Assembly (NCBI RefSeq): GCF_004102945.1 | Contig: NZ_CP019384.1 | Location: 600,001-632,000, forward strand | Direction: 5' to 3' | DNA length: 32,000 nt | Source: Candidatus Velamenicoccus archaeovorus | GTDB taxonomy: Bacteria; Omnitrophota; Gorgyraeia; Velamenicoccales; Velamenicoccaceae | Shown: positions 12,356-31,366 of the stretch, piece after piece | Position numbering within the stretch: the first letter of the stretch is position 1 | How the letters are laid out: the number at the start of each line of letters is the position of its first letter | Translations under genes and position numbers: made by a program | Notes under the pieces: generated by a model | Seen by the model: only the letters and a program-made list of their open reading frames with translations | Told to the model about the DNA's origin: nothing | The model's database searches: none

Positions 12356-12713
12356 CTCCGGCTGCGCGGCTTCCCATAAGGTGGTTGTTAGCGGCGCCCA
12401 AGATAAGGTGATGGACGCGTATCTTTCAGCAGTGAGTTCAGGCAGGCGCGACTCTGCTGATTTTATAAGAGACAAGCTGAAGATTGATAAAGCATTTGGA
12501 TATGTCGCGCCTTATACGCCTGTCATCAAGCCTGCGGATGTCAGGCTTGTCTGGATCCCTGCTCATAAGTCAAAAGAGGACAAAGATACCCTGGTGGCCG
12601 GCCACTGGATATACGTCATAGTGCGGGAACCGGGTTGGTTCATCGATTCCCAAAAACAGGATAAAGCAAAGATCCCTTTATTGGTTCCTTATAAGGAAAC
12701 CAGCGCGAAATGA
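12309..12713 (+). CDS. traV: TraV-like conjugal transfer lipoprotein (TIGR03751-like)
   Basis: Lipobox MKALKLLLTISIMLISSGC. TTG start with a GGAG RBS. It sits immediately before the VirB4/TraC gene, as in F-type systems. Confidence 0.5.
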   Translation: MKALKLLLTISIMLISSGCAASHKVVVSGAQDKVMDAYLSAVSSGRRDSADFIRDKLKIDKAFGYVAPYTPVIKPADVRLVWIPAHKSKEDKDTLVAGHWIYVIVREPGWFIDSQKQDKAKIPLLVPYKETSAK

Positions 12714-15244
12714 TCAAAACCCAGACCCTTGAGTCTTTTTTTGAAGAAGGCAGGTCTTTTATAGAGCTTCTGCCTTATCACACCCATGAAAACGGCTTTT
12801 TCGTGCTTAAAGACGGAAGCCTGGGCCAGATATGGGAGATTTCGCTTATCGAAAGCGAGACTAAATCCGCAAGCCACCTGGAGGAGTTGAGCCGGTCCTT
12901 GGAAGGGATTCTCTTGAGGCTTCCTGAAGATATGGTCAGTTGCCAGGTTATCCTTGTCTGCGACAACGGAATTGGCAAGAGGCTAAAAGCATATGAGGGC
13001 CAGTCAGGTGTTTTCGACAATGAGATCATCAGAAGCTCAAGTGAGAGCAAAATAAAACACCTCGAAGAAGGTAGGCATGGATTTTTTGAACAGGCGATCG
13101 GCGCCTTCTCCTCCAAGAGGATACGCTGTTTTTTCACCCTGAGGTATTTCCCGACGTGGGTATATCCGGCCTTTGGCGATAAGGTCCGCTTTTATTTTAC
13201 AGGCAAAGATACGATCGGAAGAAAGATCGAGCAGGATTTCCTGGTTTACTGCCAGACCATTGCCAGATTCTGCGAAGTCGTCGAAGGGGTCTTTAAGGCC
13301 TCTGAGATCAGCTATTTGAAAGTGGATGAGAAAGAGTTGCATGAGTTCTTGTATTTAATGCTGAACCCCAAACACAGTCAGGGTATGAGAGTGCCTGATT
13401 TAAGGCAAGATGGATATATGGCTGATCAGGTTTTGTACAATGCGCCAAGGGTTTCAGGGGAAGGCTTCGAGTTTGAGGATAGATTATTTCAGGTCGTGAC
13501 CTTGAAAGAGCTGCCTTTAAACACAGAGCCGGGCATGTTCAGCGCTGAGATCGTCCGGGGGATGCGTTTTTCCATGCTGGATATGATGAAGGATTTCACC
13601 ATGGTGATCAACTTCCATATTCCCAGGCAGGAAGAGGCCTTAAAGAGGATCAAGATGCAGAAGGCCTTTGCCTTCCTGCAACGCTCGACGTATTTCGGAG
13701 ATAAGTCCATCGAGGCCCAGGAGAAAAAGGAAGAGCTGGATTCTGTCGTCAAAGAGACCTTCAGCTCAGGCCACAAAATCATCTATCCCCGGATTCATTT
13801 TATCGTGTCCGGCGAAAGCCAGGAGTCCTGCAATAACCTGACCGATAACATGTTGAACGCTTTGTCTCGTATGGGTGCCGAGGGCTTGAAAGAAGAGATC
13901 ATCGCCGGATCACTTTTCTTATCATGCCTGCCTTTATGCTTCGACCATCATTATGAAAAATTCATCAAGCGCACCAGGCGTATAGTTTCAGACAATCTTG
14001 CCGACATGCTTCCATTGTACGGATCGGTCCGCGGGACCCAGGCGCCGGCCCAGCTGTACTTAAACAGAAGAGGCGAGCCTGTGTTCTGGGATTTTTTTGA
14101 TTCCAACACAAACCCGCACACGATTGTCATCGGCGCCTCAGGCTCAGGCAAGAGTTTTTTCGTGAATGACTTCATTCTTCAGAACGCGCGCCTGGATTCG
14201 CATTTCTTTGTTTTGGACAAGGGGGATTCCTATAAGAAGCTCTGTTCGGTCCTAGGTGGCCAGTACATAAGGTTTGAGCTCAATGATCCCGTGACCATCA
14301 ATCCTTTCTTAAAAGTGCCTGACGCAGAACACTTGGCGTTCCTGGTGACGATGCTCTCCCAGATGTGTTCAGGCGGCGATGAAAGGGAAAGGTTGTTGCG
14401 CGAACACGAAGGCGTGCTTCAGCAGGCGATCTTGGCCGCCTATAAGGGCAAGACCAAAGATCAGGAACTGGTCCTGTCGGATGTGGTTGAGAAGCTTAAA
14501 AGCCACAGCTGCAACAGGAAACTCGGGGTTGGCGAAAGCATCGGTATAAAGCTTGCCCTGAAGCTCAGGTCTTTTACCAAGGAAGGTCCTTTTGGCAAGT
14601 TCTTCGACGGGAAAAATCAGTTCAGCCTTGGCGCCAAGTTTACTGTCTTTGAGCTGGGGAATTTAAGCTCACATCAGGACCTGCAGGTGGTGGTTCTTTT
14701 GAACATCATGTATTTCATCACGCATTTTGTCTCGCAGTCCGAAATGAAGCCCAAGCGCAAATTTCTGCTTATAGATGAGGCCTGGAGTTTACTCAAGCTC
14801 CAGAACACGGCTGACTTCATCACCAATTCGTTTAAGACCTATCGCAAATACAGGTGTTCCTGTTGCGCCATAACGCAGGAGATCACGGACTTAATAGGAA
14901 AGGAATGCGGTATTGCCATCCAGGCCAACGCAGCCAACAAGGTATTTTTAAAGCAGGAGCCTAATGTCATTGACTCCCTGAGAGGCTTTGCATCGTTGTC
15001 CGATAAGGAAATTGAGCTCTTGAAGTCCGTTGAGACCCAGAAGGGGAGGTTCTCGGAGGCCCTCATGATTTCGGATTCATCCCGCGGCGTCATCCGTCTT
15101 GTGCCCGATCCTTTTCTTTACTGGCTGGCCACAAGCGATGCCAAGGACAACGCCTACCTGGAGGAGAAGGTGAAAAAATTCGAAGGCAGGTATTTGGAGG
15201 CGCTTTCAGAATGCGCCAAGGAGAAACCTTATGGCTTACGCTAG
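12710..15244 (+). CDS. traC: T4SS ATPase TraC/VirB4 family (TIGR03744-like)
   Basis: 844 aa. Walker A VIGASGSGKSFFV and Walker B KFLLIDEAWSLL. ATGA overlap with the upstream lipoprotein gene. Confidence 0.85.
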   Translation: MIKTQTLESFFEEGRSFIELLPYHTHENGFFVLKDGSLGQIWEISLIESETKSASHLEELSRSLEGILLRLPEDMVSCQVILVCDNGIGKRLKAYEGQSGVFDNEIIRSSSESKIKHLEEGRHGFFEQAIGAFSSKRIRCFFTLRYFPTWVYPAFGDKVRFYFTGKDTIGRKIEQDFLVYCQTIARFCEVVEGVFKASEISYLKVDEKELHEFLYLMLNPKHSQGMRVPDLRQDGYMADQVLYNAPRVSGEGFEFEDRLFQVVTLKELPLNTEPGMFSAEIVRGMRFSMLDMMKDFTMVINFHIPRQEEALKRIKMQKAFAFLQRSTYFGDKSIEAQEKKEELDSVVKETFSSGHKIIYPRIHFIVSGESQESCNNLTDNMLNALSRMGAEGLKEEIIAGSLFLSCLPLCFDHHYEKFIKRTRRIVSDNLADMLPLYGSVRGTQAPAQLYLNRRGEPVFWDFFDSNTNPHTIVIGASGSGKSFFVNDFILQNARLDSHFFVLDKGDSYKKLCSVLGGQYIRFELNDPVTINPFLKVPDAEHLAFLVTMLSQMCSGGDERERLLREHEGVLQQAILAAYKGKTKDQELVLSDVVEKLKSHSCNRKLGVGESIGIKLALKLRSFTKEGPFGKFFDGKNQFSLGAKFTVFELGNLSSHQDLQVVVLLNIMYFITHFVSQSEMKPKRKFLLIDEAWSLLKLQNTADFITNSFKTYRKYRCSCCAITQEITDLIGKECGIAIQANAANKVFLKQEPNVIDSLRGFASLSDKEIELLKSVETQKGRFSEALMISDSSRGVIRLVPDPFLYWLATSDAKDNAYLEEKVKKFEGRYLEALSECAKEKPYGLR

Positions 15245-15683
15245 GAGATTTTTTATTTTATTGTTTCTTCTGTCATTGGCCGGCTGCTGCAGTCTTGCTT
15301 CAAAAGTCAAGAAGGAAAGCGATTATGAACAAGGCTATAGAGTCGGCGTCAAAGAAAATATCCATGATTTTGCGCAAAGCTTCTACGGCAATGAGTTCCC
15401 TTATTTTTACTGGCAGAGCCCCATTGTCCAGAATGTAGTCATGCCAGCTCATATTGAAAATGGAATATTCATCCCTGAACACAATGAGCTGGTCATGATT
15501 GAACCGGGCCAATGGAGAAAGAGATTCGGCTACTCGATCAGGGGTGCGAAGAATAAGTCGGACAAAACAGAAGGAGAGGATTATGCGCTCAAGTATTTTG
15601 ATTTTGATAGCAGGGATATTACTGTGTTTCCCGAATCCTACGCAGGCGATAAACCAGGAAACGAAGTCAAAGATTCTCGTTAG
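15231..15683 (+). CDS. small lipoprotein next to the secretin (candidate pilotin / PilL-position protein)
   Basis: Lipobox FILLFLLSLAGCCS. 150 aa. Overlaps traC by 14 nt, and the inferred secretin start by 101 nt in a different frame. Confidence 0.45.
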   Translation: MAYARRFFILLFLLSLAGCCSLASKVKKESDYEQGYRVGVKENIHDFAQSFYGNEFPYFYWQSPIVQNVVMPAHIENGIFIPEHNELVMIEPGQWRKRFGYSIRGAKNKSDKTEGEDYALKYFDFDSRDITVFPESYAGDKPGNEVKDSR

Positions 15684-17127
15684 CGAGTGGCAAGCGGCAA
15701 AATCAGATGCCGGCGTTTCCGGGGATAAGCAAATCTCAGCGGCCGCAGACGAGGTTAAAAAAGATACGAAACCGGCTGGATTGCCGCCAGTCTTCTCAAA
15801 AAAGATCACCTTGAGGGCAAACAGTGTCAGCATAAGGACGATCTTAGGCAGGATAGGCGAGTTGACAGGATTGAACGTGGTTTATGACCCCGAATTCAAC
15901 TCAGATACGGTCGTGGCCCTGGATGTACAAGATGCGTCCATATGGCAGGTGCTGAGCGACGTCCTTTTTCCCTTATCAAGCAGCTTCAAGGTCAAAGACA
16001 AAAGTCTCATCATCGTCGCCAGGGAAACCCGGGTCTTTAAGCTGAGTTTGCCTCCGGGGAGCCAGGATTTTAGCGATACGGTGAGCAATGAGTCGTGGAC
16101 GAATCCGGAAGGCAATACCTCAAACAACACAGGAACTTTGTCCGGCGCCACCTCCAATATGAGCGTCAAAGTAGGCGCCAAGGTCTTTGTGGAAACCAAG
16201 GAGGGCAGCATCTCTTTCTGGAAGGATATGGAGACCAACCTTTCGAAGATGATTTCTGCAAGAGGAAAATACTCTTTTAACAAGCCTGCGGGTTTAGTCG
16301 TGGTTTCGGATAATCCGATCTGCCTGGACGAAATAGGCCGATACATTGACCTGGTCAACGCCGAAAGCAGCAAGCAGATATTGATTGAGGTCAAGGTGCT
16401 GGAAGTGAGCTTATCCCGACAGAATGCCGGCGGCATAGACTGGAATGCCATCTATAAGAACTTGGCCGGTATCAAAAAACTGACCCTCAGCTCTAATTTT
16501 ACGGGTCAGAGCATCGCGTCAGGAAGTCTTTTTACCTTGAGTGCGGCCAGTCCGAAGGATGATTCGGGAACCGGATCAAACGGTTTAAGCGTCTTGATCC
16601 AGGCGCTTGAAAGCCAAGGGAAGGTTGAGGTGATTTCGCAGCCCAAGGTCATGCTTTTGAACAACCAGTCCGCCATGGTCCAGGTCGGGACCGTGACGAG
16701 TTATGTTTCCAACACGACGACCACAGCCACACAGGCAGGCTTGGTGGCGACAAGCGCCAATACGGACCAGGTCCAGGAAGGCGTGACTTTAAGGCTTATG
16801 GCCAGTATTCGGCATGACGAGATCCTCGTGCAGCTGACTCCCGTGGTGACGACCTTGGATCAGATCAGGAGTATCAGCATGGGGAGCGGTGTTACCATAG
16901 AGGCGCCTAAGACGTCCACCCGGTCCATGCACACGCTTGTCAAGATCAAGGACGGCCAGACCATCGCTGTCGGCGGCCTGATCACATCCAATGACACCAA
17001 AAGCAAGCAAGGCATACCCGTTTTAAGCGAGCTTCCATTCGTGGGGAGGCTCTTTGAGTTTAAGAATAAATCCCTGACCAGGACCGAGCTGGTCATCTTT
17101 ATTACTCCTAAAATACTGCCGCGATGA
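15583..17127 (+). CDS. secretin (type IV pilus / T2SS outer-membrane channel, PilN/PilQ/GspD family)
   Basis: Signal peptide MRSSILILIAGILLCFPNPTQA after a GGAGAGG RBS. N0-like domain (ITLRANSVSIRTILGRIGELTGLNVVY). C-terminal secretin domain (LIQALESQGKVEVISQPKVMLLNNQSAMVQVGT ... DGQTIAVGGLI...GIPVLSELPFVGRLFEFKNK...ELVIFITPKIL). Confidence 0.85.
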   Translation: MRSSILILIAGILLCFPNPTQAINQETKSKILVSEWQAAKSDAGVSGDKQISAAADEVKKDTKPAGLPPVFSKKITLRANSVSIRTILGRIGELTGLNVVYDPEFNSDTVVALDVQDASIWQVLSDVLFPLSSSFKVKDKSLIIVARETRVFKLSLPPGSQDFSDTVSNESWTNPEGNTSNNTGTLSGATSNMSVKVGAKVFVETKEGSISFWKDMETNLSKMISARGKYSFNKPAGLVVVSDNPICLDEIGRYIDLVNAESSKQILIEVKVLEVSLSRQNAGGIDWNAIYKNLAGIKKLTLSSNFTGQSIASGSLFTLSAASPKDDSGTGSNGLSVLIQALESQGKVEVISQPKVMLLNNQSAMVQVGTVTSYVSNTTTTATQAGLVATSANTDQVQEGVTLRLMASIRHDEILVQLTPVVTTLDQIRSISMGSGVTIEAPKTSTRSMHTLVKIKDGQTIAVGGLITSNDTKSKQGIPVLSELPFVGRLFEFKNKSLTRTELVIFITPKILPR

Positions 17128-18302
17128 ACTACCTCATTCTTGATTCAGACATTTATTACGAGACAGGCGAAAAGTCCGGAAGGATATCCGGGCAGGATAT
17201 CGGGACGGTTTTTACCGGCGAGGACAAGACCGTCTCGGTTGCAGTTGTAGAGACCCTTCAAAAACACCTGGCCGCACCCCAGAAGGATACCTTCAGCCGT
17301 GACCAATTGATAGCCGAAAGCTTTGGCTCCGAATACGTCACGCAGTCAGAACAGATAGGGAATAACTTCTTTCAGGTCATTGCCATTGAGAAGGCCAAGG
17401 TCAACGAGATCTACAAATGTCTTGGTTTTGAAAACGTCCGGCGTATTGTTCCTTACGCTGTGGCTTTGAGGGAATTCCTAAAGATCAACAATCTCTTGGA
17501 TGTCGAAAAAAGGGTCATTTTCCTGGATTACCTGAACCCTACGGTGCTTTTGACGATTTTCCACGAAGACGCATTTACCACACCCAGGCGCCTTGCCTTA
17601 AACAACCGCATTCCAATAGAAATCACGCGCAGCCAGGAGAACTACAGGAATCTCAATAAGGACGCAAACGGTGTTGATTTTCTGATTATCACCAATTCAA
17701 AGGACATTAAGGATAAGATTGTTGCAAGCGGCCTTGAGGCCAATGAAAATATCACTCTGGTTAAGGATCCTTATCCGGCTTTGACAGGTCTTAGGCAAGG
17801 CAAATTCAGCATGCACTATCTCCTGCCCGAGCAATTTATCCGCCTAAGGCGGGCAAAAGAGATAAAGAAGCGTTTCCTGAGCCTCGGAGTTATGGCTGCA
17901 ATTCTTAGCGTATTTCTGGCCGTGTTTGCTGTCTCATTTGGCATTAATAAGGACAGGAGGCTTGCATTAAAGGATTTGCAGCTCAAAGAGCGGTCCGAAA
18001 GCGAAAAGTTAAAACAGGCTTATACGGCAAAATACAGAGATATGGTCAGACGTGGAGTGAAGATCAATTTCGACGATTACCTCGAGTCCTTTATTAACGC
18101 GGTACCTGATGAATACAAGATAGAGTCCATTGTCATGAGGAAAATATCATCCGGAGTTTTTCGGTTTGAGGCGGTTGTGTTGGCAGATGATGATAGGTCC
18201 TGCTCTGCTTTCGTCCTGCCGCAGCATTTCAGGCAGGCCAAGACAGAGAATATTCTGGTCAAAAGCAATCCCGGAGTTCGTGTGATGTTGGATATCTTCT
18301 AA
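17124..18302 (+). CDS. GspL / PilM-PilN-fusion-like bitopic assembly protein (IncI PilO position)
   Basis: A cytoplasmic domain of about 260 aa, a single TM helix (FLSLGVMAAILSVFLAVFAVSF), then a periplasmic domain of about 110 aa. ATGA overlap with the secretin gene. Confidence 0.45.
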   Translation: MNYLILDSDIYYETGEKSGRISGQDIGTVFTGEDKTVSVAVVETLQKHLAAPQKDTFSRDQLIAESFGSEYVTQSEQIGNNFFQVIAIEKAKVNEIYKCLGFENVRRIVPYAVALREFLKINNLLDVEKRVIFLDYLNPTVLLTIFHEDAFTTPRRLALNNRIPIEITRSQENYRNLNKDANGVDFLIITNSKDIKDKIVASGLEANENITLVKDPYPALTGLRQGKFSMHYLLPEQFIRLRRAKEIKKRFLSLGVMAAILSVFLAVFAVSFGINKDRRLALKDLQLKERSESEKLKQAYTAKYRDMVRRGVKINFDDYLESFINAVPDEYKIESIVMRKISSGVFRFEAVVLADDDRSCSAFVLPQHFRQAKTENILVKSNPGVRVMLDIF

Positions 18303-18321
18303 ATGGAAGGAGGTGGAATCA

Positions 18322-18549
18322 ATGTCGATTTATTACGGAAAACTCAGCCGCAAAGTTGGCAAGGAGGGAAAAGAATACTTTGTGGGTCGGGCAGGCGGGA
18401 TCCCTGTCAGGGCAGCCTGGGGAAAAAAGAAGGAAGACGACATCTGCATCTTTTTGGATGTCGATAGGATTAATTTCCTGGCAAAGGGCGAGAAGGCAAA
18501 TGGCGCCGGCGAAGAGGCAGGTGCCGGGGCAGAGGAAAATCAGGCGTAA
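18322..18549 (+). CDS. small hypothetical protein (weak DUF736-like pattern) with an acidic Gly/Ala/Glu tail
   Basis: 75 aa with a GGAAGGAGG RBS 8 nt upstream. AGGIPVRAAWGKKKEDDICIFLDVD loosely resembles the DUF736 core (AGG..iGAAWkK......yLsvkLDD). Confidence 0.35.
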   Translation: MSIYYGKLSRKVGKEGKEYFVGRAGGIPVRAAWGKKKEDDICIFLDVDRINFLAKGEKANGAGEEAGAGAEENQA

Positions 18550-18562
18550 TGATAAGTCGAAG

Positions 18563-18605
18563 AGCTCATCCGGTGCGTTTAGGGCCGGATGAGCTTGGAG
18601 GTTTT
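18563..18605 (+). terminator. perfect 11-bp hairpin inside the pilus operon (terminator or attenuator)
   Basis: AGCTCATCCGG (18563-18573) pairs with CCGGATGAGCT (18585-18595), followed by TGGAGGTTTTT. Confidence 0.4.
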
Positions 18606-18620
18606 TAAGAAAACAAAGCC

Positions 18621-19106
18621 ATGAAAACTATCACATTTCTTTTTGCGGCGGCAATTTTGTTTTTATCCATAAAAATATGGGGCCTTGACCAGGACTCGAG
18701 CCTGCTTAATATCCGGCTAAAAAAAGCCCGGGAAGAGATCAGGGCGATCGTTCTGAAACAAAACAGTCTTAGCGTCTATAGAGATGAGCCAGCCCTGCCT
18801 TTGGACCAATGCTATCTGCAAGTTTACAACGACATCAAGGAAATAGCCGCCTACTACGATGAGATCTGTGATGTCAAGATCGTCGGAGCCAAGGAGCTGG
18901 TGGCTATAAAAGAGTTTTCTAAGCCGTCTGGCTATGAAGGGATAAGATATCTCGACGTCCTTAGCCGGTTTACTTTAAGTGAAAAGACAGGGCATTCTTT
19001 GTTGTGCATGTTTTATGGCTTAAGCCAAGCCGGGCCGATGGAGATCCTGGGGGTTGATATGGAAAAAAATATTGTTACTCTGACCATGCGTCTTTACGGG
19101 ATTTAA
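18621..19106 (+). CDS. PilO/GspM-like inner-membrane assembly protein
   Basis: 161 aa. N-terminal TM helix (ITFLFAAAILFLSIKIWG), a short coiled coil, then an alpha/beta domain. Size and position fit GspM/PilO. Confidence 0.4.
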   Translation: MKTITFLFAAAILFLSIKIWGLDQDSSLLNIRLKKAREEIRAIVLKQNSLSVYRDEPALPLDQCYLQVYNDIKEIAAYYDEICDVKIVGAKELVAIKEFSKPSGYEGIRYLDVLSRFTLSEKTGHSLLCMFYGLSQAGPMEILGVDMEKNIVTLTMRLYGI

Positions 19107-19123
19107 GAAAGGAGGATCTCCTC

Positions 19124-19744
19124 ATGAGAAAACTTTTGATTTTATCTCTAATCTTCGTCTTCGGTATGGGCTTAAGGCTTGTTTGGGCCAGCGACGATAA
19201 CCTTCTGGCTGTGGATGTCTCTCGTCAGGAGAAAAAAATTCCTCCGCGGGAAAACAAGGTCTTTTCGACACAAGAAACGCCCAAGAATAGTGCGTCTGTT
19301 GTTTCGGGGCAGAGGGATGAATTTGCCAAAGATTTGGAAAAAATAAAGGCTTTCCATGAAGCGATGAACGACAAGCGTCATGCCGTAGAGATGATCCGGC
19401 TCGATCTTGAGAAAGAGAGTCTTCTCTTGAAGGAAAAACAGGCTCAGAAGCAGATATACGACATCGACAACAGTCTGCCGTTGGTTAAAAAAGAGGAGTT
19501 TCAGAAAAGTGATCTGTCGGGAGGGCTCAAGGTTTCCGGGGTTGATCCTTCGGATGTCAGGCTCTTGATGATCGTGATCGCCGGAGGCCTGAAAGAAGGG
19601 ATTCTTACTTTGAAAGGCACGCCCTACAGGTTCAAAGAAGGCGATTGTGTCGCCTCAAAGCTGACTGTCTCAAAGATCACAAGGGATACGCTTACGCTCA
19701 AGCAGCCGGATCAAACGGAATTTACGCTGAACTTCATGGATTAA
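19124..19744 (+). CDS. PilP/GspC-like assembly protein
   Basis: N-terminal signal/anchor (LLILSLIFVFGMGLRLVWA), a coiled-coil linker, and a C-terminal beta-domain (ILTLKGTPYRFKEGDCVASKLTVSKITRDTLTLKQ) like the PilP/GspC HR domain. Confidence 0.4.
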   Translation: MRKLLILSLIFVFGMGLRLVWASDDNLLAVDVSRQEKKIPPRENKVFSTQETPKNSASVVSGQRDEFAKDLEKIKAFHEAMNDKRHAVEMIRLDLEKESLLLKEKQAQKQIYDIDNSLPLVKKEEFQKSDLSGGLKVSGVDPSDVRLLMIVIAGGLKEGILTLKGTPYRFKEGDCVASKLTVSKITRDTLTLKQPDQTEFTLNFMD

Positions 19745-19747
19745 AAC

Positions 19748-21388
19748 ATGGCTATAGAGAAGATAGGCGATATCCTCCTTAAAGCCCGCAGCGTCACAAA
19801 AGAAGAGCTGGACTATTGTTTTGCGATCCAGAAGGGCCTAAAGACGGATGAGAAGATAGGTAAGATCCTCAGGTATTTTAACTTTACAACAGACAAGGAG
19901 ATCGCCTGTGCCCTTGCCTATCAGGTAGGGTGGAAGTATTTTGACAAGAAATACGTGATTGACCTTGAGACAATCGATGGGATCGGTCTTGAGTTTTTCA
20001 AGCAAGAATCTTTTGTTCCTGTGAGGACTGACGAAGGCCTGGCGTTTGTCTTTGCGCATCCTTTTGCCGTCGCTGCCACGGATTGTTTGTCGAAATACGG
20101 CTTAAGTGATAAAGACTGCTACGTTGGCAGCGAAAACCAGGTCCGTTATCACCTCGATTGTCTTTCCAACCGCAAAAAGGCGGCCGAGATAGAAAAAAAG
20201 ATAGGCCTTATTAAAGAGCAGGGTCTCATCGGCAATGAGCTTAAGGAATTGGCGGACGCTCTTCTGGATGAAGCGATCATCCAGGGCGCAAGCGATATCC
20301 ACATCGAGCCTGAGGAAAAGATAAGTACGGTGCGTTTCAGGATCGACGGGATGCTTTATTTTCGGCTGGCGATCCGACCCGATGTGCACAATAATCTTGT
20401 CAACATCATATTCAGCAAGGCGGATATCACGGTCAGCGATTTTTTGAAGTTCCACGATGCCAGGTTCCAGCACAACTATTCAAACCACGCGGTTGATGTC
20501 AGGGTCTCCTGCATTCCTTCGTCCCACGGCCCGGCCCTGGTGCTTCGTCTCCTGGACGTCACGAGGTCGCTCATCACTTTGGAACAGCTGGGATTTGACA
20601 GGACGCATTTTGATTGCATACGACGCATTGCGCAGAAGCCACACGGCATTATCATCATGGCCGGTCCCACAGGATCAGGCAAGACAACGACGCTTTATGC
20701 CATCTTAAACGAGCTTAAGTCCGTCTCAACGAAGGTGATCACGATCGAGGACCCGGTGGAGATAAAGATGCCGCTTGTCAATCAGGTCCAGATTAACGAG
20801 AAGCAGGGCATCACGTTCGCAGGCGCCACCCGAGCTTTTTTGAGGCATGATCCAAACATCATCTTGATCGGGGAGATTAGGGACAGGGATACAGCCCAGG
20901 AAGCCATCCGTGCAGCCATTACAGGCCATAGGGTGCTTTCGACATTGCACACGAACACGGCCGTTGATTCTATTTACAGGCTTCATGACTTAGGGGTTGA
21001 TCTGCCCTATATCTCAAACAGCATTTTGGCTGTTATCTCGCAAAGGCTGATCAGGAAGCTATGCTCATCCTGCAAGAAGAAAGTCACGGTCAAGAAAGAG
21101 AAGTGGCCGGCATTCTTTAAAGAACAATTCAAGGAAGACAAAAGCGAAATCCGCGCCTACAAAGCCGTCGGCTGCGACCATTGCCAGGCAGGTTACAAAG
21201 GCCGCACTGTCATTGCGGAGATTCTGGAGTTTGATCCGGAGATTAAAAGCATAGTTGCGTCAGGACGACTCGAGTCACTTCATGATAAAGAGAGGCAAAA
21301 GTCGCGCCTTGACCTTGGCCAGGATGCAGCCAGGCTTATTCTTTGCGGCGTGACCTCTTTTGAAGAGGCAGAAAGGATCATCGGATAG
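19748..21388 (+). CDS. type IV pilus / T2SS assembly ATPase (PilB/GspE family)
   Basis: T2SSE_N-like N-terminus (IGDILLKARSVTKEELDYCFAIQK...KIGKIL). Walker A GPTGSGKTTT. Asp/His boxes (IGEIRD, VLSTLHTN). Tetracysteine motif CSSCKKK...CDHCQAGYKGR. Confidence 0.9.
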   Translation: MAIEKIGDILLKARSVTKEELDYCFAIQKGLKTDEKIGKILRYFNFTTDKEIACALAYQVGWKYFDKKYVIDLETIDGIGLEFFKQESFVPVRTDEGLAFVFAHPFAVAATDCLSKYGLSDKDCYVGSENQVRYHLDCLSNRKKAAEIEKKIGLIKEQGLIGNELKELADALLDEAIIQGASDIHIEPEEKISTVRFRIDGMLYFRLAIRPDVHNNLVNIIFSKADITVSDFLKFHDARFQHNYSNHAVDVRVSCIPSSHGPALVLRLLDVTRSLITLEQLGFDRTHFDCIRRIAQKPHGIIIMAGPTGSGKTTTLYAILNELKSVSTKVITIEDPVEIKMPLVNQVQINEKQGITFAGATRAFLRHDPNIILIGEIRDRDTAQEAIRAAITGHRVLSTLHTNTAVDSIYRLHDLGVDLPYISNSILAVISQRLIRKLCSSCKKKVTVKKEKWPAFFKEQFKEDKSEIRAYKAVGCDHCQAGYKGRTVIAEILEFDPEIKSIVASGRLESLHDKERQKSRLDLGQDAARLILCGVTSFEEAERIIG

Positions 21389-22606
21389 ATGCACTACAAA
21401 TATAGCGTCCTTTCACAGACCGGCAATGAGATAAGCGGCACCGAACAGGGCTCTTATCAGGCGATCAGAGACAAGCTAAAGAATAACAATTTTCACATTT
21501 TGTCCCTGGAGCCTGATCTTATCAAGTCCATCGAATTTTATCTGAAAAGAAAACGAATCAAGGCCCAGGCTCTGGCTGAACTTTTTGAGGACCTTTCGAA
21601 TACCCTAGAAACCGGCCTGAGCATGAATGAGGCTATTATGACGCTTGAGGAATCCTCAGTCGAGCCTGTCTTAAAGGAGGCCCTTTCACGGATCAATGCC
21701 AGTCTTTCTAGGGGCGCTTCCTTGACTGAGGCTTTCAGCCGGACAGAAGTCTTTCCCTGGCAGGTTCTCAATATGGTCCGGGTCGGCGAGAAATCCGGAG
21801 GCCTTGAGCGCGTATTCAGGGATCTGGCAGGCTATTTTTCCAGGGAAGCGGACTTTTTACGCAGCTTAAAAGGCGCCTTGGTTTATCCTGCGGTCGTCTT
21901 CTGCCTGCTTGTCGTTGTCATGTTCTATGTTTCTTTCCAGGTGATTCCGCACTTGGAGGCACTCCTGCCGATAAAGGAAAACGCCTGCTTTGCCACGCGC
22001 CTGCTTTTGTCTTTGAGCCATGGCCTGAGGTATTATTGGTTCATGTATTTGGCCGTGCCTGTTGTTTTGGCCTTCTTTTATTCGAGGCTTAAAGTAAGCC
22101 AGGTCGAGCGTATAAGGGATTTTTATTACAGGATTCCAGTATTAGGCCCCTTGATAAAAGACGTGGCTTTCAGCTTTTTGTTCTCTAACCTTGCGATCCT
22201 GCAAAGAAACGGCATCAGCGTCATCGAGGCCCTTTCCCTGGTTCGCGATACATCTTTTGACAAGTTCTTTGCCGAAAAGATTGCCAAAGTTAAGGATACC
22301 GTTATCAGTGGGTTAAGCCTTTGGCAAGCCTTAAAGCGCGATGCGTTTTTTCCCAAGCCTGTCTGCTCAAGCATCAGAAAAGGCGAGGAGATGGGCAACC
22401 TTGACAAATATCTCGAGAGCCTGGCGGATTCATATTTCAAGAAGGTGACGAGGCGCATCGATGCGCTCTTGGGTTTTATCCAGCCGGCATTTTTGATGCT
22501 TTGCGGGCTTCTTCTCTTATTCATCGTGTGGGCGTTCGTCATACCGGTCTACAGCAATCTTTCGAATATAGCGGGTGGGAACCAAATTCTAAAAGGAGGT
22601 GGGTAA
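21389..22606 (+). CDS. type IV pilus / T2SS platform protein (PilC/GspF family)
   Basis: 405 aa with a duplicated GspF-type repeat (LSNTLETGLSMNEAI.. and LAILQRNGISVIEAL..) and three TM helices. Starts one base after the ATPase stop. Confidence 0.85.
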   Translation: MHYKYSVLSQTGNEISGTEQGSYQAIRDKLKNNNFHILSLEPDLIKSIEFYLKRKRIKAQALAELFEDLSNTLETGLSMNEAIMTLEESSVEPVLKEALSRINASLSRGASLTEAFSRTEVFPWQVLNMVRVGEKSGGLERVFRDLAGYFSREADFLRSLKGALVYPAVVFCLLVVVMFYVSFQVIPHLEALLPIKENACFATRLLLSLSHGLRYYWFMYLAVPVVLAFFYSRLKVSQVERIRDFYYRIPVLGPLIKDVAFSFLFSNLAILQRNGISVIEALSLVRDTSFDKFFAEKIAKVKDTVISGLSLWQALKRDAFFPKPVCSSIRKGEEMGNLDKYLESLADSYFKKVTRRIDALLGFIQPAFLMLCGLLLLFIVWAFVIPVYSNLSNIAGGNQILKGGG

Positions 22607-23031
22607 TGAGGAACAAGAAAGGGTTCACGTTGATCGAACTGGTTCTGGTCATCAGTATCATCGCGCTCTTGATTATGGCCGTGGGTCTGGCGTCTGGCGT
22701 CAGGGAAAACGCCAAGATCCACTCAGCCGCAGAGTCCGTTAAGTCTTTAAGGACGGCCGCGGAAAGCTACATCGCTTCAGGTAATATGACGTATGAAGGG
22801 ATCGTAATTTCCGGATTACAAACTGCAGGCTATTTACCCGAGAGTTTTTCGCCGACAGGGTCAAATCCGTGGGGAGGGGATTATACGGTTATGCCTAATG
22901 CGGATCCCAACAAGGTGGATATCTCCTTGACACAGGTCAGCGAGTCGGGGGCGGTGCGACTTTCTGCTTTGTTTGCCAACAGCGCGACAGCAACAAGCTA
23001 TTCTTCCGGAACATGGACCGCGACATTCTAG
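22606..23031 (+). CDS. type IV prepilin (likely major subunit)
   Basis: Class III signal MRNKKG/FTLIELVLVISIIALL (Gly-1, Phe+1, Glu+5). AAAGGAGG RBS. The ATG overlaps the upstream stop (TAATG). The ORF-track start at 22501 is rejected. Confidence 0.85.
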   Translation: MRNKKGFTLIELVLVISIIALLIMAVGLASGVRENAKIHSAAESVKSLRTAAESYIASGNMTYEGIVISGLQTAGYLPESFSPTGSNPWGGDYTVMPNADPNKVDISLTQVSESGAVRLSALFANSATATSYSSGTWTATF

Positions 23032-23483
23032 AAACTGAGGGTTTCAGCTTAATTGAGCTGAGCCTTGTTTTCGCGATAGCTGTCATACTTCTGGGGGTGG
23101 CTTTTTATTCTGCTGCCAGAATGAGACAGGCTGTTTTGGCCAAAAAAACGATCCAGGAGATGGATGTCTTGGCGGATGCAAGCGTTCAATATTATCTGGG
23201 GAACGGGGCGTGGCCGCAGGATGCGGCGGACCTGCGGCCCGCCCACCTCAGTCCTGAGGCAACGGGCATTAATCCTTTTGGCAATGTCTATACCATAACA
23301 GGCGGCGTCTCAAGCGTCACTATTTCGACAGCGCTGCCAAAAGGGCTCATAATGTCTGAAAATTTTGGCAGTGAGATTGTGGTTCAGAATCAAGGCGCCA
23401 ATGATCTGGTTAGCGTCACAAGATCCGTTGAAAGCACGGCGTGGGGATTGCAGTATGACAAGAAGAATATCTTTCATCAATAA
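23013..23483 (+). CDS. type IV minor prepilin / pseudopilin
   Basis: MDRDILETEG/FSLIELSLVFAIAVILLG prepilin signal with Glu+5. Confidence 0.7.
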   Translation: MDRDILETEGFSLIELSLVFAIAVILLGVAFYSAARMRQAVLAKKTIQEMDVLADASVQYYLGNGAWPQDAADLRPAHLSPEATGINPFGNVYTITGGVSSVTISTALPKGLIMSENFGSEIVVQNQGANDLVSVTRSVESTAWGLQYDKKNIFHQ

Positions 23484-24288
23484 AACGGGATTTTCCTTAA
23501 TCGAGCTGTGCATTGCGATGGGGGTTTTGGCCATTCTTGCCTCATCCATCACGCCGGTCTTTATCAAAAGGGTTCAGATTAAGGCAGCGGAAAAGACCGC
23601 GCTTGAAATGGCGAATATCCAGCAGGCAGCTTGCGCTTATTTCATTTCAAACGACGCATGGCCCGACAATATCCAGGTTTTAGGAGCCGCAGGCTATATC
23701 AATCCCGACTGGACGGCGAATAATCCCTGGCAAAATGCCTATAACATTTCATCGACGGCTACAGGTTTTAGCGTAACGACTATTGTGCCTCAGGAATGGA
23801 CCGGTCTGGTCGCAAGAAATCTGCCTACGAGCTCGGTATCTGGAGGATTTGTAACAAGCATGGTTTCGGTGCCCGGGGCTATGTTAAATGAATCGCTTCC
23901 CGCAGGTGCCATTGTCATTTGGTCTGGGACTGTTGCAAGTATTCCTTCAGGATGGCAGCTCTGTGATGGGACCAATGGCACGCCTGATTTAAGGGACAGG
24001 TTTGTGGTTGGGGCAAGCCAGGATGTGGGAAACATGCCAGAGACTAATGTTTCAGGGGTTTTGACCAAGACAGGCGGAGAGGCCAAACATACCATGACCA
24101 TTGCCGAAATGCCGCCGCATTCGCACTCTTACCGCTGGTGGAATGCATGGTATTTTTCAGGAAGCAGCGAGCTGGGTGCAAAAGGCACCTACGATGACAA
24201 CCACCAGACAAGCGTGGTCGGCGGTGGGCAGCCCTTCAATGTGCTGCCGCCTTATTATGCTCTATGTTTTATCATGAAGATGTCTTAA
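23455..24288 (+). CDS. prepilin fused to a C-terminal phage tail-collar (receptor-binding) domain; candidate pilus-tip adhesin
   Basis: MTRRISFINKTG/FSLIELCIAMGVLAILA prepilin signal. The C-terminus PAGAIVIWSGTVASIPSGWQLCDGTNGTPDLRDRFVVGA...GGEAKHTMTIAEMPPHSH...GGGQPFNVLPPYYALCFIMK matches the phage tail collar / MdpB-type signature. Start ATG 23455, not 23365. Confidence 0.75.
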   Translation: MTRRISFINKTGFSLIELCIAMGVLAILASSITPVFIKRVQIKAAEKTALEMANIQQAACAYFISNDAWPDNIQVLGAAGYINPDWTANNPWQNAYNISSTATGFSVTTIVPQEWTGLVARNLPTSSVSGGFVTSMVSVPGAMLNESLPAGAIVIWSGTVASIPSGWQLCDGTNGTPDLRDRFVVGASQDVGNMPETNVSGVLTKTGGEAKHTMTIAEMPPHSHSYRWWNAWYFSGSSELGAKGTYDDNHQTSVVGGGQPFNVLPPYYALCFIMKMS

Positions 24289-24354
24289 GATTCAGGGGGT
24301 TGTTGATTTTAGGTTCGAGGCAGGATGTTCGAGTGGATTTTTATGATCAGCGGT

Positions 24355-24867
24355 TTATATTCCCAGAGTCTTTTTTACGTCTTTTATCAATAGATACATA
24401 TGAAGCGGATCGATGGGCGAGGGTTCGAAGCCGAAGTGTTCATAGAAAGATTTGGCTCGTTCGTTTTTCGCATGGACCAGGATAGCCCGGCCGCCGATGC
24501 TGTCGGCTGCAGCGACGATGCGCACGAGCGCATCCCAAAGTAAGGCCTTGCCTAAACCAGTGCCTCGTGCGGTTTTGTCAGTCGCCAGACGTGCAAGAAT
24601 AACGACTGGAACGGGATAATTGGCCAAACCTTTGCCGATGCGTTGTGGGGCTTCAAGTTTGCTTACCGAACCGGGGGTAAGGGTGTAGTAGCCGACTACC
24701 TGATTGTTTTTGGTCGTGACGTAGGTCCTGGAAGCGCCGTTTTGGTTATTGATAAGCGCGTACTTTTTCAGGTAGCCGTTGAGAGATTCGTCTCCGCAAT
24801 CGAATCGATCGATGGCGTGAGCCCCCTGAAGCAGGGCAGGTGAAGTAAGAGAAGATCCTTCACTCAT
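24355..24867 (-). CDS. tacT: GNAT-family acetyltransferase toxin (TacT/KacT/AtaT-like)
   Basis: 170 aa. FDCGDESLNGYLKKYA, SRTYV, GYYTLTPGSV, ILARLATDKTARGTGLGKALLWDAL and AKSFYEHFGFEP are the hallmarks of DUF1778-associated GNAT toxins. It overlaps the upstream antitoxin gene by 8 nt. Confidence 0.85.
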   Translation of the reverse strand: MSEGSSLTSPALLQGAHAIDRFDCGDESLNGYLKKYALINNQNGASRTYVTTKNNQVVGYYTLTPGSVSKLEAPQRIGKGLANYPVPVVILARLATDKTARGTGLGKALLWDALVRIVAAADSIGGRAILVHAKNERAKSFYEHFGFEPSPIDPLHMYLLIKDVKKTLGI

Positions 24868-25135
24868 GAAAAATGCTTCGTCCTTGAAAAAGTTTCTTGA
24901 GTGCTGGAATTTCCTTGGCTGGCCTGTCCAAAGCGATGCAGAAGGCTTTCCACTGGGCCTGAGGCAGCTGGAAGTGGGCCTTGTCAGCCACCAGATCTTC
25001 CGCTTCTCTTAGAGCGCTAGCCAGAACAAAGGCTGATAGTTTCTGGTGACGAAGGGAAGCTGCGTACACAAGGAGATCCTTTTGGGAGTCTTCAATGCGT
25101 AGATCAATGCGTTCATTTTTTTGTGCTAGTGCCAT
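24860..25135 (-). CDS. tacA: DUF1778 (TacA-like, RHH) antitoxin
   Basis: 91 aa, MALAQKNERIDLRIEDSQKDLLVYAASLRHQKLSAFVLASALREAEDLV... . AAGGAGG RBS on the minus strand. Only this 3' part of the 314-aa minus-strand ORF (24860-25804) is credible. Confidence 0.8.
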   Translation of the reverse strand: MALAQKNERIDLRIEDSQKDLLVYAASLRHQKLSAFVLASALREAEDLVADKAHFQLPQAQWKAFCIALDRPAKEIPALKKLFQGRSIFHE

Positions 25136-25187
25136 TGGTTTATCCTCCTTCTTTGTGGCAATATAAATATAACATATAGTACACACA

Positions 25188-26114
25188 TTGTCCATACAAA
25201 ATTTAAAATACTTCAGGATGGCCATTATCTTGGTTTTATTGCTGGTTCTGTGCTTTGTTTGCGGCAGGGCATATGCGCTTGAGCTTAGCGATATCCCAGG
25301 GATGATCGATTGGAGTTGTCTGGATTTAAAAGTCATCGGGACCTGCGTCGGGCCTTTCGGCATCCCGGGCATTGTCATTATGTACTGGGAGCCGGCGCTT
25401 CTCATCGAAACCGTCAAGCAGCCCGGCGATACGATTATCGGATCGCTCAAACCCGAATTCCAGAATCTTACGGCCCAGGCAGTCAAGAATTTTGCCAAAA
25501 GCATCGCTGGATCATCCATACTTGCTTCCAGCGGATCAGGCTCATCAAAGATAGAGGAGACAAACTTGCAGTTCAACGAGGCGCATGTGTATGCGTTTCC
25601 TTTTGGGGATGAAATCATGATGTCTTTAGGCATGACGTGTCCGGACAAGCTTCCAACAGGCTTTTTTATTAAATATCTTTCGGAGCTCGATTCTTTGGAG
25701 TGGCGCATAGGAGTCACGGAAGTCCTGAATCCCAAAAGCATGGCTTCAGCTGCAAGCGGACCGGCCTGCGCTGCAATATCCGGTTTTATGGAGGACTTGT
25801 GCATGGGGTATTGGGGAGCAACTTACCCCAGGCGAGGCTTCTTTACGCACCAGAGCCAGGTCGTAGGAAGCGCGGCCGCGGCTATCCGGGCTGTGAGTAT
25901 TGCTTCAGCTCTCAATGTCCCAGGACACGTTGTCTTAGAGACAACGGGGTTTGTGCCGTCTTTTGGAAATGACAAGCTGCAAATGATTTATCCGGTTGTT
26001 TCTGGATGCATCAAAATAGGCCAGAATCCGGCACTCTGGGAATCCGGAAAATTATCCGCAAACGGCAAGTACCTATGGGTCTACTGGAGAAGAAGAATAT
26101 GCTGCGTGTATTAG
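25188..26114 (+). CDS. traU: TraU-like T4SS periplasmic protein (TIGR03756-like)
   Basis: Signal peptide (AIILVLLLVLCFVCGRAYA). Cys-rich (WSCLDLKVIGTCVGPFG, MTCPD, GPACAAISGFMEDLCMG, SGCIKIG). Position before the DUF1525/TraF/TraH-like genes. Start is TTG 25188 or ATG 25218. Confidence 0.5.
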   Translation: MSIQNLKYFRMAIILVLLLVLCFVCGRAYALELSDIPGMIDWSCLDLKVIGTCVGPFGIPGIVIMYWEPALLIETVKQPGDTIIGSLKPEFQNLTAQAVKNFAKSIAGSSILASSGSGSSKIEETNLQFNEAHVYAFPFGDEIMMSLGMTCPDKLPTGFFIKYLSELDSLEWRIGVTEVLNPKSMASAASGPACAAISGFMEDLCMGYWGATYPRRGFFTHQSQVVGSAAAAIRAVSIASALNVPGHVVLETTGFVPSFGNDKLQMIYPVVSGCIKIGQNPALWESGKLSANGKYLWVYWRRRICCVY

Positions 26115-29109: not shown

Positions 29110-30682
29110 ATGACAAATAATAACAATACGACTAAAGAACAGGAACGCGCCGAACTGCACCGCGCTATTTGGCAGATCGCCAACGATTTGCGCGGTAGCG
29201 TGGACGGCTGGGACTTTAAACAATATGTTTTGGGAATGCTTTTTTATCGCTTCATCAGCGAAAATCTCACCAGCTACATCAATGAAGACGAGCGGCGCAG
29301 TGGCAGTAAAGAGTTTGATTACGCCAAGCTCACGGATAAAAAAGCGGAGTTCGGCCGCGTTGATACGGTAAAAGAAAAAGGGTTCTATATCTTGCCCAGC
29401 GAGCTTTTTGTCAATGTTTGCTCTAAGGCGCGTCAAGACGCCAACCTTAACGAAACGCTGGCCAAGGTACTCCGCAATATTGAAAAATCGGCCAAGGGTT
29501 CGGACAGCGAGGATGACCTAAAAGGTTTGTTTGATGATCTTGATGTAAATTCCAGCAAGCTCGGCAATACTGTGGAAAAAAGAAACCAAAAACTGGTGAA
29601 GCTTTTGGAAGCGATCGGTGACCTGCGGCTGGGAAATTATTACGATAACACGATTGACGCCTTTGGCGACGCCTATGAGTTTTTGATGACCATGTACGCT
29701 TCCAACGCGGGAAAATCCGGGGGAGAATTTTTTACCCCGCAGGAAGTGAGTGAACTGTTGGCCTGCTTGGCGACCGTTGGAAAGAAGGAAGTCAACAAGG
29801 TCTATGACCCGGCTTGCGGTTCCGGTTCGCTTCTTTTGAAGTTTGCCAAAATTCTCGGCAAAGAAAATGTAAGAATGGGATTCTTTGGACAGGAGATCAA
29901 CCTTACCACCTACAACCTCTGCCGTATCAATATGTTTTTGCACGACATCAACTACAATCATTTTGATGTTGCCCACGGCGATACACTGACCGACCCAAAG
30001 CACTGGGATGACGAGCCTTTCGACGCCATCGTTTCCAATCCGCCGTATTCCATCAAATGGGAAGGTGACAGTAATACGCTTCTTATAAATGACCCGCGCT
30101 TTTCACCGGCAGGAGTATTGGCGCCAAAGAGCAAGGCAGATCTTGCCTTCACCATGCATATGCTTTCTTGGCTTTCTACCAGCGGCACAGCGGCAATCGT
30201 TGAATTTCCCGGAGTGTTGTATCGTGGAGGTGCTGAGCAGAAGATCCGCAAATATTTGGTTGATAACAACTACATCGATACCGTGATCCAGCTCCCACCT
30301 GATCTTTTTTTTGGCACGACTATCGCTACCTGCATTATCGTGCTCAAAAAAAGCAAAAAGGATAACAAAACCCTGTTTATTGACGCTTCAGCCGAATTTG
30401 TGCGCGGTGGAAACAAAAATAAGCTTACTGAAGAAAACCGCGCCAAAATAATGGAGGCGTTTACCAAGCGTGCAGACAAAGCGCATTTTGCCAAATTGGT
30501 AAGCAACAAAACCATTGAAGAAGATGACTACAACATCACGGTCTCCAGTTATGTGTTGCAAAAAGATACCCGTGAGGTTGTTGATATCAAAAAACTCAAC
30601 GCCGAGATCAAAGGCATCGTTGCACGGCAGAACGAACTCCGCACGGCAATTGATGAGATTGTAGCTGATATTGAGGGTAGCC

Positions 30683-30690
<8 letters not shown>
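29110..30690 (+). CDS. hsdM: type I restriction-modification system methyltransferase subunit HsdM
   Basis: HsdM_N pattern ([36 protein letters not shown]), SAM-binding motif I ([13 protein letters not shown]) and catalytic motif IV (IVSNPPYS). Confidence 0.95.

Positions 30691-31366
<676 letters not shown>

Follow-up and report, generated by a model that had tools for sequence, protein, structure and literature searches.

Introduction

In the conjugative systems of R64, TP114 and PAPI-1, a tip adhesin of the type IV pilus, PilV or PilV2, binds the lipopolysaccharide (LPS) of the recipient cell and sets the specificity of mating (PMC9045228, PMC10654706, PMC5297154, PMC10516633). A fusion of PilV with a tail collar domain (UCP91044.1, in CP084655.1), encoded among pilus genes, has been described by Milman et al. 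(2023, NAR), who already proposed that a phage tail domain has been repurposed for recipient specificity in conjugation (PMC9881135). Here, we analyze a small pilin joined to a tail-fiber tip ('collar') module, hereafter called the collar pilin, which is encoded in a stretch of 32,000 nucleotides (the window) of Candidatus Velamenicoccus archaeovorus, a member of the Omnitrophota (NZ_CP019384.1, positions 600,001 to 632,000 of the forward strand). The gene lies in a cluster of type IV pilus genes that is itself set in a type IV secretion system (T4SS). An earlier reading of this stretch, the original prediction, had regarded the protein as a pilus-tip adhesin borrowed from phage tail fibers.

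Two further groups of pilins are relevant for the comparison. Modular pilins, as catalogued from InterPro by Raynaud et al. in 2021, are expected at the pilus tip; this catalogue contains two collar-containing architectures and a pilin-Peptidase_S74 architecture (29 proteins), lists a counterpart of the PilV-collar fusion (IPR012902-IPR007001-IPR011083) in its Dataset S1, and has no plain pilin-collar combination (PMC8179133). Besides, the minor pilins CofB of the colonization factor antigen III (CFA/III) pilus of enterotoxigenic Escherichia coli (ETEC) and TcpB of the toxin-coregulated pilus (TCP) of Vibrio cholerae are trimeric and located at the tip, and have been proposed both to cap the pilus and to initiate its assembly (PMC6048534, PMC10120004, PMC9565799, PMC8179133).

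Results and Discussion

Domain architecture of the collar pilin

Sequence comparisons and a structural model indicate that the collar pilin consists, in this order, of a complete small pilin, a linker of approximately 7-10 residues and a tail-fiber tip module, and it is a 'modular pilin' as defined by Raynaud et al. 2021 (PMC8179133). The fusion of a prepilin with a collar domain, as claimed in the original prediction, proved to be real, conserved and under purifying selection, and we have hardly any doubt about this architecture.

The N-terminus of the encoded protein is MTRRISFINKTG followed directly by FSLIELCIAMGVLAILASSITPVF, and it has the features of a type IV pilin signal, i.e., a hydrophilic leader ending in Gly, a hydrophobic residue at position +1, Glu at +5 and about 20 hydrophobic residues. 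The class III prepilin signal that had been read from the sequence passes NCBIfam TIGR02532 (20.5 bits, cutoff 16.3). Pfam N_methyl scores 20.4 bits on the window protein, just below its gathering score of 21.2, and is matched in all 32 aligned family members at E ≤ 0.01. Met1 is invariant among the homologs, and the leader is 12 residues long in 112 of the 116 with a recognizable motif, with Gly-1 also present in 112. Considering this invariance and the conserved leader length, the ATG at 23455 is supported as the start codon, and the suspicion that the true start might lie elsewhere was not borne out. The gene overlaps the upstream minor-pilin gene by 29 nt, and a promoter and terminator scan around it gave nothing above the shuffled expectation. 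Leader cleavage and methylation of residue +1 are presumed to be performed by a prepilin peptidase of the host.

The pilin module is well modeled. In the AlphaFold2 (AF2) model of the monomer, it forms a long helix (residues 15-66) and strands between residues 97 and 138, with predicted local distance difference test (pLDDT) values of about 80-87, and Foldseek matched this part to the pilins 1AY2 and Clostridioides difficile PilA1 with a probability of 0.99-1.0. Pilins were also matched by the family profile in the PDB (1e-4), and the module shares 31% identity (E=1e-14) with the 156-aa minor pilin encoded immediately upstream. The stretch that had been described as a linker of about 130 aa is, on these grounds, a complete pilin globular domain. 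The true linker comprises only about 7-10 residues (approximately 141-147), where the model confidence drops and where column entropy shows a peak of 1.6 bits (residues 141-150).

The C-terminal module is homologous to the tips of tail fibers. Searching the PDB directly with the window protein (phmmer) returned 9QGO (4.4e-11) and 6OV6 (4.1e-10), and a profile built from 32 homologs returned 9QGO (1.5e-15), 6OV6 (2.5e-14) and 9NXK (8.9e-12), with alignments that start at residue 132, 145 or 155 and reach residue 275 or 276. Foldseek with the AF2 model also pointed to 9NXK (2.3e-5) and 6OV6 (1e-4). Of these structures, 9QGO is deposited as "Tail fiber protein" and is cited in a structural study of the Photorhabdus PVC contractile injection system, while papers citing the other two entries describe 6OV6 as the receptor-binding protein C24 of the Bizionia prophage JUB59 and 9NXK as the tail fiber gp60 of phage Pa223, a trimer. 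All three, the best solved homologs of the module, are deposited as three identical chains. Within the family, Pfam Collar was matched in 29 of the 32 members (best E=1.5e-5) and Gp10_C in 10 of the 32 (best 3.3e-9). In the GenBank phage collection the C-terminal module matched 318 records, 223 of them at a coverage of at least 80%, annotated as tail fiber or tail collar proteins. The top match in this collection by coverage times identity was a tail protein of a Methanosarcinales virus (BK063672.1, 26614-27057; 40% identity, 5e-18).

Distribution of the family

A search of 5.8 billion proteins gave more than 7000 matches, of which the best 120 were nearly all full-length (about 277 aa, 50-91% identity) and almost all unnamed metagenomic sequences. 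From NCBI, JGI, ENA and Logan assemblies we collected 117 further full-length homologs of 255-300 aa with the same architecture. The search for other pilin-collar architectures that the original prediction had suggested thus brought these 117 fusions, next to the PilV-collar fusion that had already been published. Among the PLSDB plasmids no record carried the full fusion at ≥80% coverage, and only the pilin module was matched, in the last pilin of the pilus cluster of Pseudomonas megaplasmids (see below). A preprint on mobile elements of the Omnitrophota does not mention a collar pilin.

In a locus scan with one genome per species of the GTDB (loci labeled L001 and so on), the gene was found in 16 loci from metagenome-assembled genomes (MAGs), down to 38% identity. 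Wherever the flanks were available, the gene order was kept, running from traC and the secretin through the assembly ATPase, the platform protein, PilS, the minor pilin where present and the collar pilin to traU and, further downstream, to a relative of TIGR03755. Contigs of 220-631 kb show the element to be integrated in the chromosome. The separate minor pilin is missing in the divergent loci L011, L016, L018 and L020, in which the collar pilin directly follows the major pilin and would be the only minor pilin.

The host MAGs belong to the Omnitrophota, with some labeled Planctomycetes. Six loci (L001, L006, L012, L016, L019 and L020) have the labels Planctomycetia or Planctomycetales, and the collar pilin of one of them, L001, is 87% identical to that of the window. 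These labels could reflect either taxonomic mislabeling or a spread across phyla.

A hypervariable tip on a conserved scaffold

The alignment of 118 full-length members divides the protein into a conserved scaffold and a hypervariable distal tip. Column entropy is about 0.2-1.2 bits in residues 1-190 and 261-277, apart from small peaks in the leader (1.3 bits) and in the linker, and it rises to 1.3-3.0 bits in residues 191-260; 55 of the 57 insertion columns fall at positions 209-261. The two parts also have discordant histories. Some pairs of proteins have scaffolds that are 95% identical and tips that share only 10-31%, while other pairs combine scaffolds of 67-70% identity with tips of 91-93%. 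Synonymous divergence (dS) between L002 and L003 amounts to 0.81 for the tip, against about 3 for the scaffold. Within one tip type, the ratio of nonsynonymous to synonymous divergence (omega) is about 0.05-0.14 for the scaffold and 0.06-0.44 for the tip, indicating purifying selection on both.

Two other sources of tip diversity were considered and rejected. Positive selection by point mutation does not agree with the pairwise omega, which is below 0.5 everywhere, and the exchange of cassettes explains the diversity better. Programmed variation by a shufflon or by a mechanism of the diversity-generating retroelement (DGR) type was discarded since no meaningful inverted or direct repeats were present at 22600-25300 or in the whole window. 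The discordance between scaffold and tip, the purifying selection and the lack of repeats together lead us to conclude that the tip diversity arises from the exchange of cassettes and not from a local shufflon or DGR. From the alignments, a distal part that is hypervariable and exchanged looks as would be expected of a receptor-binding tip, and this view is supported.

All 118 members contain the motif HxH, in one to four copies, always in the C-terminal module and never in the pilin module, and the HSH of the window protein aligns with AHTH of 9NXK, the Pa223 fiber. Pairs of HxH motifs have been reported to bind Fe2+ on the trimer axis of the T4 and JUB59 fibers, and the same has been proposed for SU10 (PMC9509320). 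By analogy, the HxH of the collar pilin may be a metal-binding motif on a trimer axis.

Exchange of modules between carriers

The collar module is not restricted to pilins. In locus L017, from a Nitrospirae MAG, the tip type of the window (…HTMTIAEMPPHSHSYRWWNAWYFSGSSE…) is found at 68% identity on a non-pilin protein with a Sec signal, which means that the collar module moves between different carriers. Such cellular Sec-signal proteins are the closest collar relatives of the window protein, and the claim that the domain was borrowed from phages therefore has to be reduced to one of homology. The protein of L017 (9620-11224) has an N-terminal domain with the motif 'INYQG.LTD' and adjoins a collagen-repeat protein. 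This domain is shared by a Sec-signal collar protein of an Omnitrophota MAG (L021, 6162-16470), which is located between two giant RHS/YD-like proteins.

Conversely, the carrier pilin is found with other C-terminal modules. When the pilin module alone was searched against 1.84 billion cluster representatives, 112 matched at E ≤ 1e-10; among the top 150 representatives, 40 had the collar module, 89 were of at least 200 aa with other C-terminal modules, and 22 were short. Giant C-terminal regions of 1190-1833 aa are fused to the same carrier in other metagenomic proteins (P0184, P0188 and P0174), and in P0184 and P0188 the fusion is to Peptidase_S74, the self-cleaving trimerization chaperone of tail fibers and spikes. 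A remote relative of the carrier pilin, P0208 (492 aa), bears the end of the PilV Shufflon_N region. In Pseudomonas megaplasmids (L080, NZ_CP083368.1, 7498-13011), the last pilin of the pilus cluster (339 aa) joins a carrier module of about 33% identity to an unrelated C-terminal module; a run of radical SAM/SPASM genes follows this pilus cluster downstream to 24480. Given the variety of modules on the same carrier, the carrier pilin looks like a general display module for adhesive domains that are located at the tip and are often trimeric.

Genetic context

Of the three overlapping pilin genes of the pilus cluster, which is set between traC and traU, the last encodes the collar pilin (Table 1). 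Upstream of the cluster are genes for TraG_N, a MobC/Replic_Relax-like protein, a TraD-type coupling protein, TraE, TraB and TraC, and downstream are those for TraU, TraW-like and TrbB/TraF-like proteins and a relative of TIGR03755, a marker of integrative and conjugative elements (ICEs); relatives of the ICE-type families TIGR03755/03756 flank the pilus cluster. All proteins of the T4SS score far below the equivalog cutoffs, so that we regard the system as a distant relative of the F/G type. The three accessory ORFs (open reading frames) of the cluster have no Pfam or NCBIfam match, no lytic transglycosylase was found in the window, and a tRNA and att-site search found no tRNA in the window.

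Other genes of the window resemble cargo: a NYN-domain nuclease (8842-9516) between the coupling protein and traE, the HsdM and HsdS subunits of a type I restriction-modification (R-M) system after the T4SS (29110-31366), and, at 1208-2790, a B12-binding radical SAM-like gene (1208-2314) beside a gamma-glutamyl cyclotransferase-like gene. The GNAT/TacA pair that separates the collar pilin from traU is confined to the window and L001, its closest relative; L002-L008 lack it.

Table 1. Genes of the pilus cluster with its flanks, and parts of the collar pilin, by position in the window.
Feature	Position	Strand	Basis
TraC/VirB4 ATPase of a conjugative T4SS, upstream flank of the pilus cluster	12710..15244	+	Domain searches
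Secretin (PilN-like)	15499..17127	+	Pfam Secretin, 2.8e-37
Three conserved accessory ORFs (392, 161 and 206 aa) in PilO/PilP-type positions	17124..19744	+	Syntenic in L001-L007
Pilus assembly ATPase (T2SSE/PilQ-like), the sole such ATPase in the cluster	19748..21388	+	Pfam T2SSE, 2.6e-107
Pilus platform protein (T2SSF/PilR-like)	21389..22606	+	Pfam T2SSF, 8.9e-47
Major pilin, PilS type; start GTG 22603 or ATG 22606	22603..23031	+	Pfam PilS PF08805, 27.1 bits (cutoff 22); N_methyl, 33 bits
Minor pilin, 156 aa, paralog of the pilin module of the collar pilin	23013..23483	+	Domain searches, pairwise comparison
Collar pilin, modular minor pilin of 277 aa: pilin module and tail-fiber tip ('collar') module	23455..24288	+	Domain, PDB, family and structure searches
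Class III leader peptide, aa 1-12, MTRRISFINKTG, with Gly-1 last	23455..23490	+	TIGR02532 above cutoff; family alignment
Pilin module, aa 13-140: F+1, E+5, hydrophobic alpha1-N, helix 15-66, small beta-sheet	23491..23874	+	AF2, Foldseek, PDB pilins, paralogy
Short variable Pro/Gly-containing linker, aa 141-147	23875..23895	+	Entropy peak, pLDDT dip
Conserved N-terminal half of the collar base, aa 148-190, LPAGAIVIWSGTVASIPSGWQLCDGTNGTPDLRDRFVVGA	23896..24024	+	Pfam Collar at 151-173; aligned to 9QGO, 6OV6 and 9NXK; entropy 0.2-0.8 bits
Hypervariable distal tip cassette, aa 191-260, with HSH at aa 222-224 (nt 24118-24126)	24025..24234	+	Entropy, indels, mosaic pairs, dS discordance, HxH
Conserved C-terminal strand of the collar base, aa 261-277, FNVLPPYYALCFIMKMS	24235..24285	+	Aligned to the C-termini of 9QGO, 6OV6 and 9NXK; kept in the family
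GNAT toxin and TacA antitoxin pair, between collar pilin and traU, outside the pilus system	24355..25150	-	Pfam
TraU-like T4SS protein, downstream flank of the pilus cluster	25188..26114	+	Domain searches; adjoins the collar pilin in L002-L008

Proposed role and alternative explanations

We propose that the collar pilin is probably a homotrimeric tip adhesin analogous to PilV. This proposal is based on the trimeric state of the solved homologs, the precedent of CofB and TcpB, the tip location expected of modular pilins and the binding of LPS by PilV and PilV2; the HxH motifs and the Peptidase_S74 fusions on the same carrier (P0184 and P0188) are also counted toward the trimer. Judged by these analogies, we lean toward a role in setting the specificity for a partner or a surface, though with considerable reserve.

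In the mechanism that we envisage, a prepilin peptidase would cleave the leader, and a few copies of the collar pilin, most likely three, would start pilus assembly and so end at the tip of the filament. Their alpha1 helices would sit in the filament core, while the C-terminal modules would intertwine into one homotrimeric fiber tip with a metal ion held by HxH, as in the solved homologs. The variable distal loops may then bind a structure on the surface of the partner cell, probably a glycan or an outer-membrane component, and the pilus would bring or hold donor and recipient together for DNA transfer by the T4SS. Exchange of the tip cassette would retarget the element, as the exchange of tail fibers retargets phages. 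Extended to the whole family, this would give conjugative elements with a mating pilus that is capped by a three-subunit, metal-stabilized phage-fiber tip and retargeted by swapping cassettes with other elements, with secreted fiber proteins and possibly with phages, a picture that we offer only tentatively.

Several observations weigh against parts of this proposal. The sole relaxase-like match, to Replic_Relax, is subthreshold (24.2 bits, cutoff 25.3), and the conjugative role of the whole T4SS in the Omnitrophota is itself one that we infer. There is no retraction ATPase in the pilus cluster, and no prepilin peptidase (Peptidase_A24) was found by Pfam or NCBIfam among the window ORFs scanned. 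Three subunits joined in a symmetric trimer would also be staggered along the axis of a helical filament, and the short linker (about 7-10 residues) would have to compensate for this stagger. For the collar itself, Pfam Collar (PF07484) reaches only 16.6 bits against a cutoff of 24 on the window protein and covers only residues 151-173, Gp10_C (PF21939) reaches 17.3 bits against 27 (residues 181-268), and the collar part of the AF2 monomer has low confidence (pLDDT 36-77; predicted template modeling score, pTM, 0.43). The structure prediction suggested for the fusion thus succeeded for the pilin fold but modeled the collar part poorly, an outcome that would be natural for a module whose folding depended on an intertwined trimer. 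Likewise, the proposed confirmation by PF07484 was not obtained for the window protein itself, but Collar in most relatives and the significant direct comparison of the family profile with 9QGO, 6OV6 and 9NXK settle the homology despite the subthreshold scores. That both signatures are subthreshold in this family is probably also the reason why a plain pilin-collar architecture is missing from the 2021 catalogue.

Instead, the pilus and its collar pilin might mainly serve an epibiotic or parasitic lifestyle, in which the minute cells of the Omnitrophota fasten to a host, a prey cell or a surface. The neighboring T4SS would in this case be a device for effectors or DNA exchange rather than a conjugation system of the classical kind, and the adhesin would select hosts instead of mating partners. 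The Omnitrophota are a phylum of very small, probably host-dependent cells, and the family is confined to Omnitrophota-type MAGs, which fits such a role, as do the giant RHS-like proteins adjoining a related collar protein (L021), the weak relaxase assignment and the Methanosarcinales virus as the source of the best phage-collection match by coverage times identity. On the other hand, the gene is found between traC and traU in every syntenic locus, together with the coupling protein, TraG_N and ICE-type markers; the cargo differs between loci, with the toxin-antitoxin pair and the type I R-M system only in some, as is typical of mobile elements; and the phylogenies of scaffold and tip conflict, which fits elements that encounter each other within the same hosts. 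Attachment as the main function is unlikely in our view.

Less likely again is a role chiefly as an assembly initiator or cap like TcpB and CofB, in which the collar would be a structural trimerization plug or a dock for a secreted partner that does not itself bind a receptor. Some subunit must prime pilus assembly, and besides the collar pilin there is just one other minor pilin, which four loci (L011, L016, L018 and L020) lack; moreover, the CofB and TcpB trimers bind the secreted CofJ and TcpF and do not bind host receptors directly (PMC6048534, PMC10120004, PMC9565799). A purely structural plug, however, would not be expected to be hypervariable, rich in indels and horizontally exchanged on a conserved base, and the homologous modules of phages and PVC are target-recognition tips (PMC9509320, PMC10097599). 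Initiation and adhesion are, besides, not mutually exclusive.

Finally, an artifact of annotation or assembly (for instance a misplaced start codon, two genes fused by a frameshift or a chimeric contig), to which the Pfam scores of both modules below the gathering thresholds and the absence of the exact window protein from the assembly index might point, is refuted by the 117 further full-length homologs from several assembly sources, the invariant Met1 and conserved leader, the purifying selection on both modules and the same gene order in 16 independent MAG loci, so that we give it practically no credence.

If the collar pilin is a tip adhesin, it would provide a sequence-defined handle on the partner choice of a mobile element in the Omnitrophota, a widespread, uncultivated and small-celled phylum. 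Conjugative pili and phage fibers would then draw on one shared pool of receptor-binding tips, and the same carrier pilin also displays other tail-fiber hardware, i.e., the S74-chaperoned giant fibers. If pili of this family are indeed capped by a trimer with swappable tips, the partner range of ICEs would evolve as the host range of phages does, through one modular mechanism and out of one pool of modules. It also follows from the proposal that a type IV pilus would be capped, in homotrimeric geometry, by a known trimeric fold. The combination of a conserved scaffold with a swappable tip could lend itself naturally to engineering conjugative delivery toward new targets, in the way that PVC tail fibers have been retargeted.

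Comparison with known systems

The collar module is homologous to the tips of tail fibers such as those of T4 gp10/gp12, JUB59 C24 (6OV6), Pa223 gp60 (9NXK) and Photorhabdus Pvc13 (9QGO/8ON5), at 1.5e-15 to 8.9e-12. They share the first strand IPxGWxLCDG..PDLR, the last strand LPPYYAL.FIMK, the HxH motifs and a variable center. In tail fibers, however, the module follows a trimeric shaft on a baseplate or tail, whereas in the window protein it follows a type IV pilin module of the kind that polymerizes into a helical filament, and the nearest collar relatives of the window protein are secreted proteins of cells and not phage genes.

As regards overall design, the collar pilin resembles CofB and TcpB, which likewise combine a pilin module, a flexible linker and C-terminal beta-rich domains in a homotrimer. 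Their C-terminal domains have H-type-lectin or beta-sandwich folds, not tail-fiber tips, and they bind the secreted CofJ and TcpF. The structures of CofB and TcpB are in the PDB. Neither was among the PDB sequence matches of the collar pilin, which were listed at E ≤ 10 or E ≤ 1, nor did the 50 listed Foldseek matches include them, and the resemblance is architectural only. The pilins PilB, with a vWA domain, and PilC, with a lectin domain, of Streptococcus sanguinis also display an adhesive module on a filament by means of a small pilin and a short linker. The window protein differs from them in having another effector module, of a presumably obligatorily trimeric fold, which would imply a tip of three subunits rather than a single capping subunit.

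With PilV of R64/IncI1 and TP114/IncI2 and with PilV2 of PAPI-1, the collar pilin shares its place as the last pilin gene of a T4SS-linked PilS-type cluster and the combination of a conserved N-terminal with a variable C-terminal part. The window protein, in contrast, shows detectable homology to these proteins only in the generic pilin N-terminus, its variable part has a tail-fiber tip fold, the window contains neither a shufflon nor an Rci-type system, and the element belongs to a host of the Omnitrophota and uses a T4SS of a distant F/G type, not of the I type. Membership in the PilV family was considered and rejected: Shufflon_N (PF04917) gave no match at E ≤ 1 in the window protein, hhalign of the collar-pilin alignment with a Salmonella plasmid PilV gave a probability of 2.5%, and there are no shufflon repeats, although P0208 joins a carrier pilin to the end of Shufflon_N. 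Since these defining features of PilV are absent, we conclude that the collar pilin is not a member of that family. The parallel with R64 pilV drawn in the original prediction therefore stands for the position of the gene in a PilS-type cluster of a conjugative T4SS, but not for homology or for a shufflon, and the collar pilin is plausibly a functional analog, rather than a homolog, of the PilV adhesins of R64, TP114 and PAPI-1.

Among the closest counterparts is UCP91044.1, in which a tail collar domain likewise forms the C-terminal part of a prepilin and whose gene also lies in the company of pilus genes. UCP91044.1 has a Shufflon_N constant region and programmed inversions, while the window protein has neither, is much smaller and varies between genomes by the exchange of cassettes. 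Overall, modular pilins, the PilV-collar fusion, trimeric tip pilins and the idea of repurposing were known before, and the advance made here is incremental, as these general ideas are already in the literature. What is distinct in the collar pilin is the small carrier outside the PilV family, the lack of a shufflon, the exchange of tip cassettes between genomes and the location in a distant F/G-type element of the Omnitrophota.

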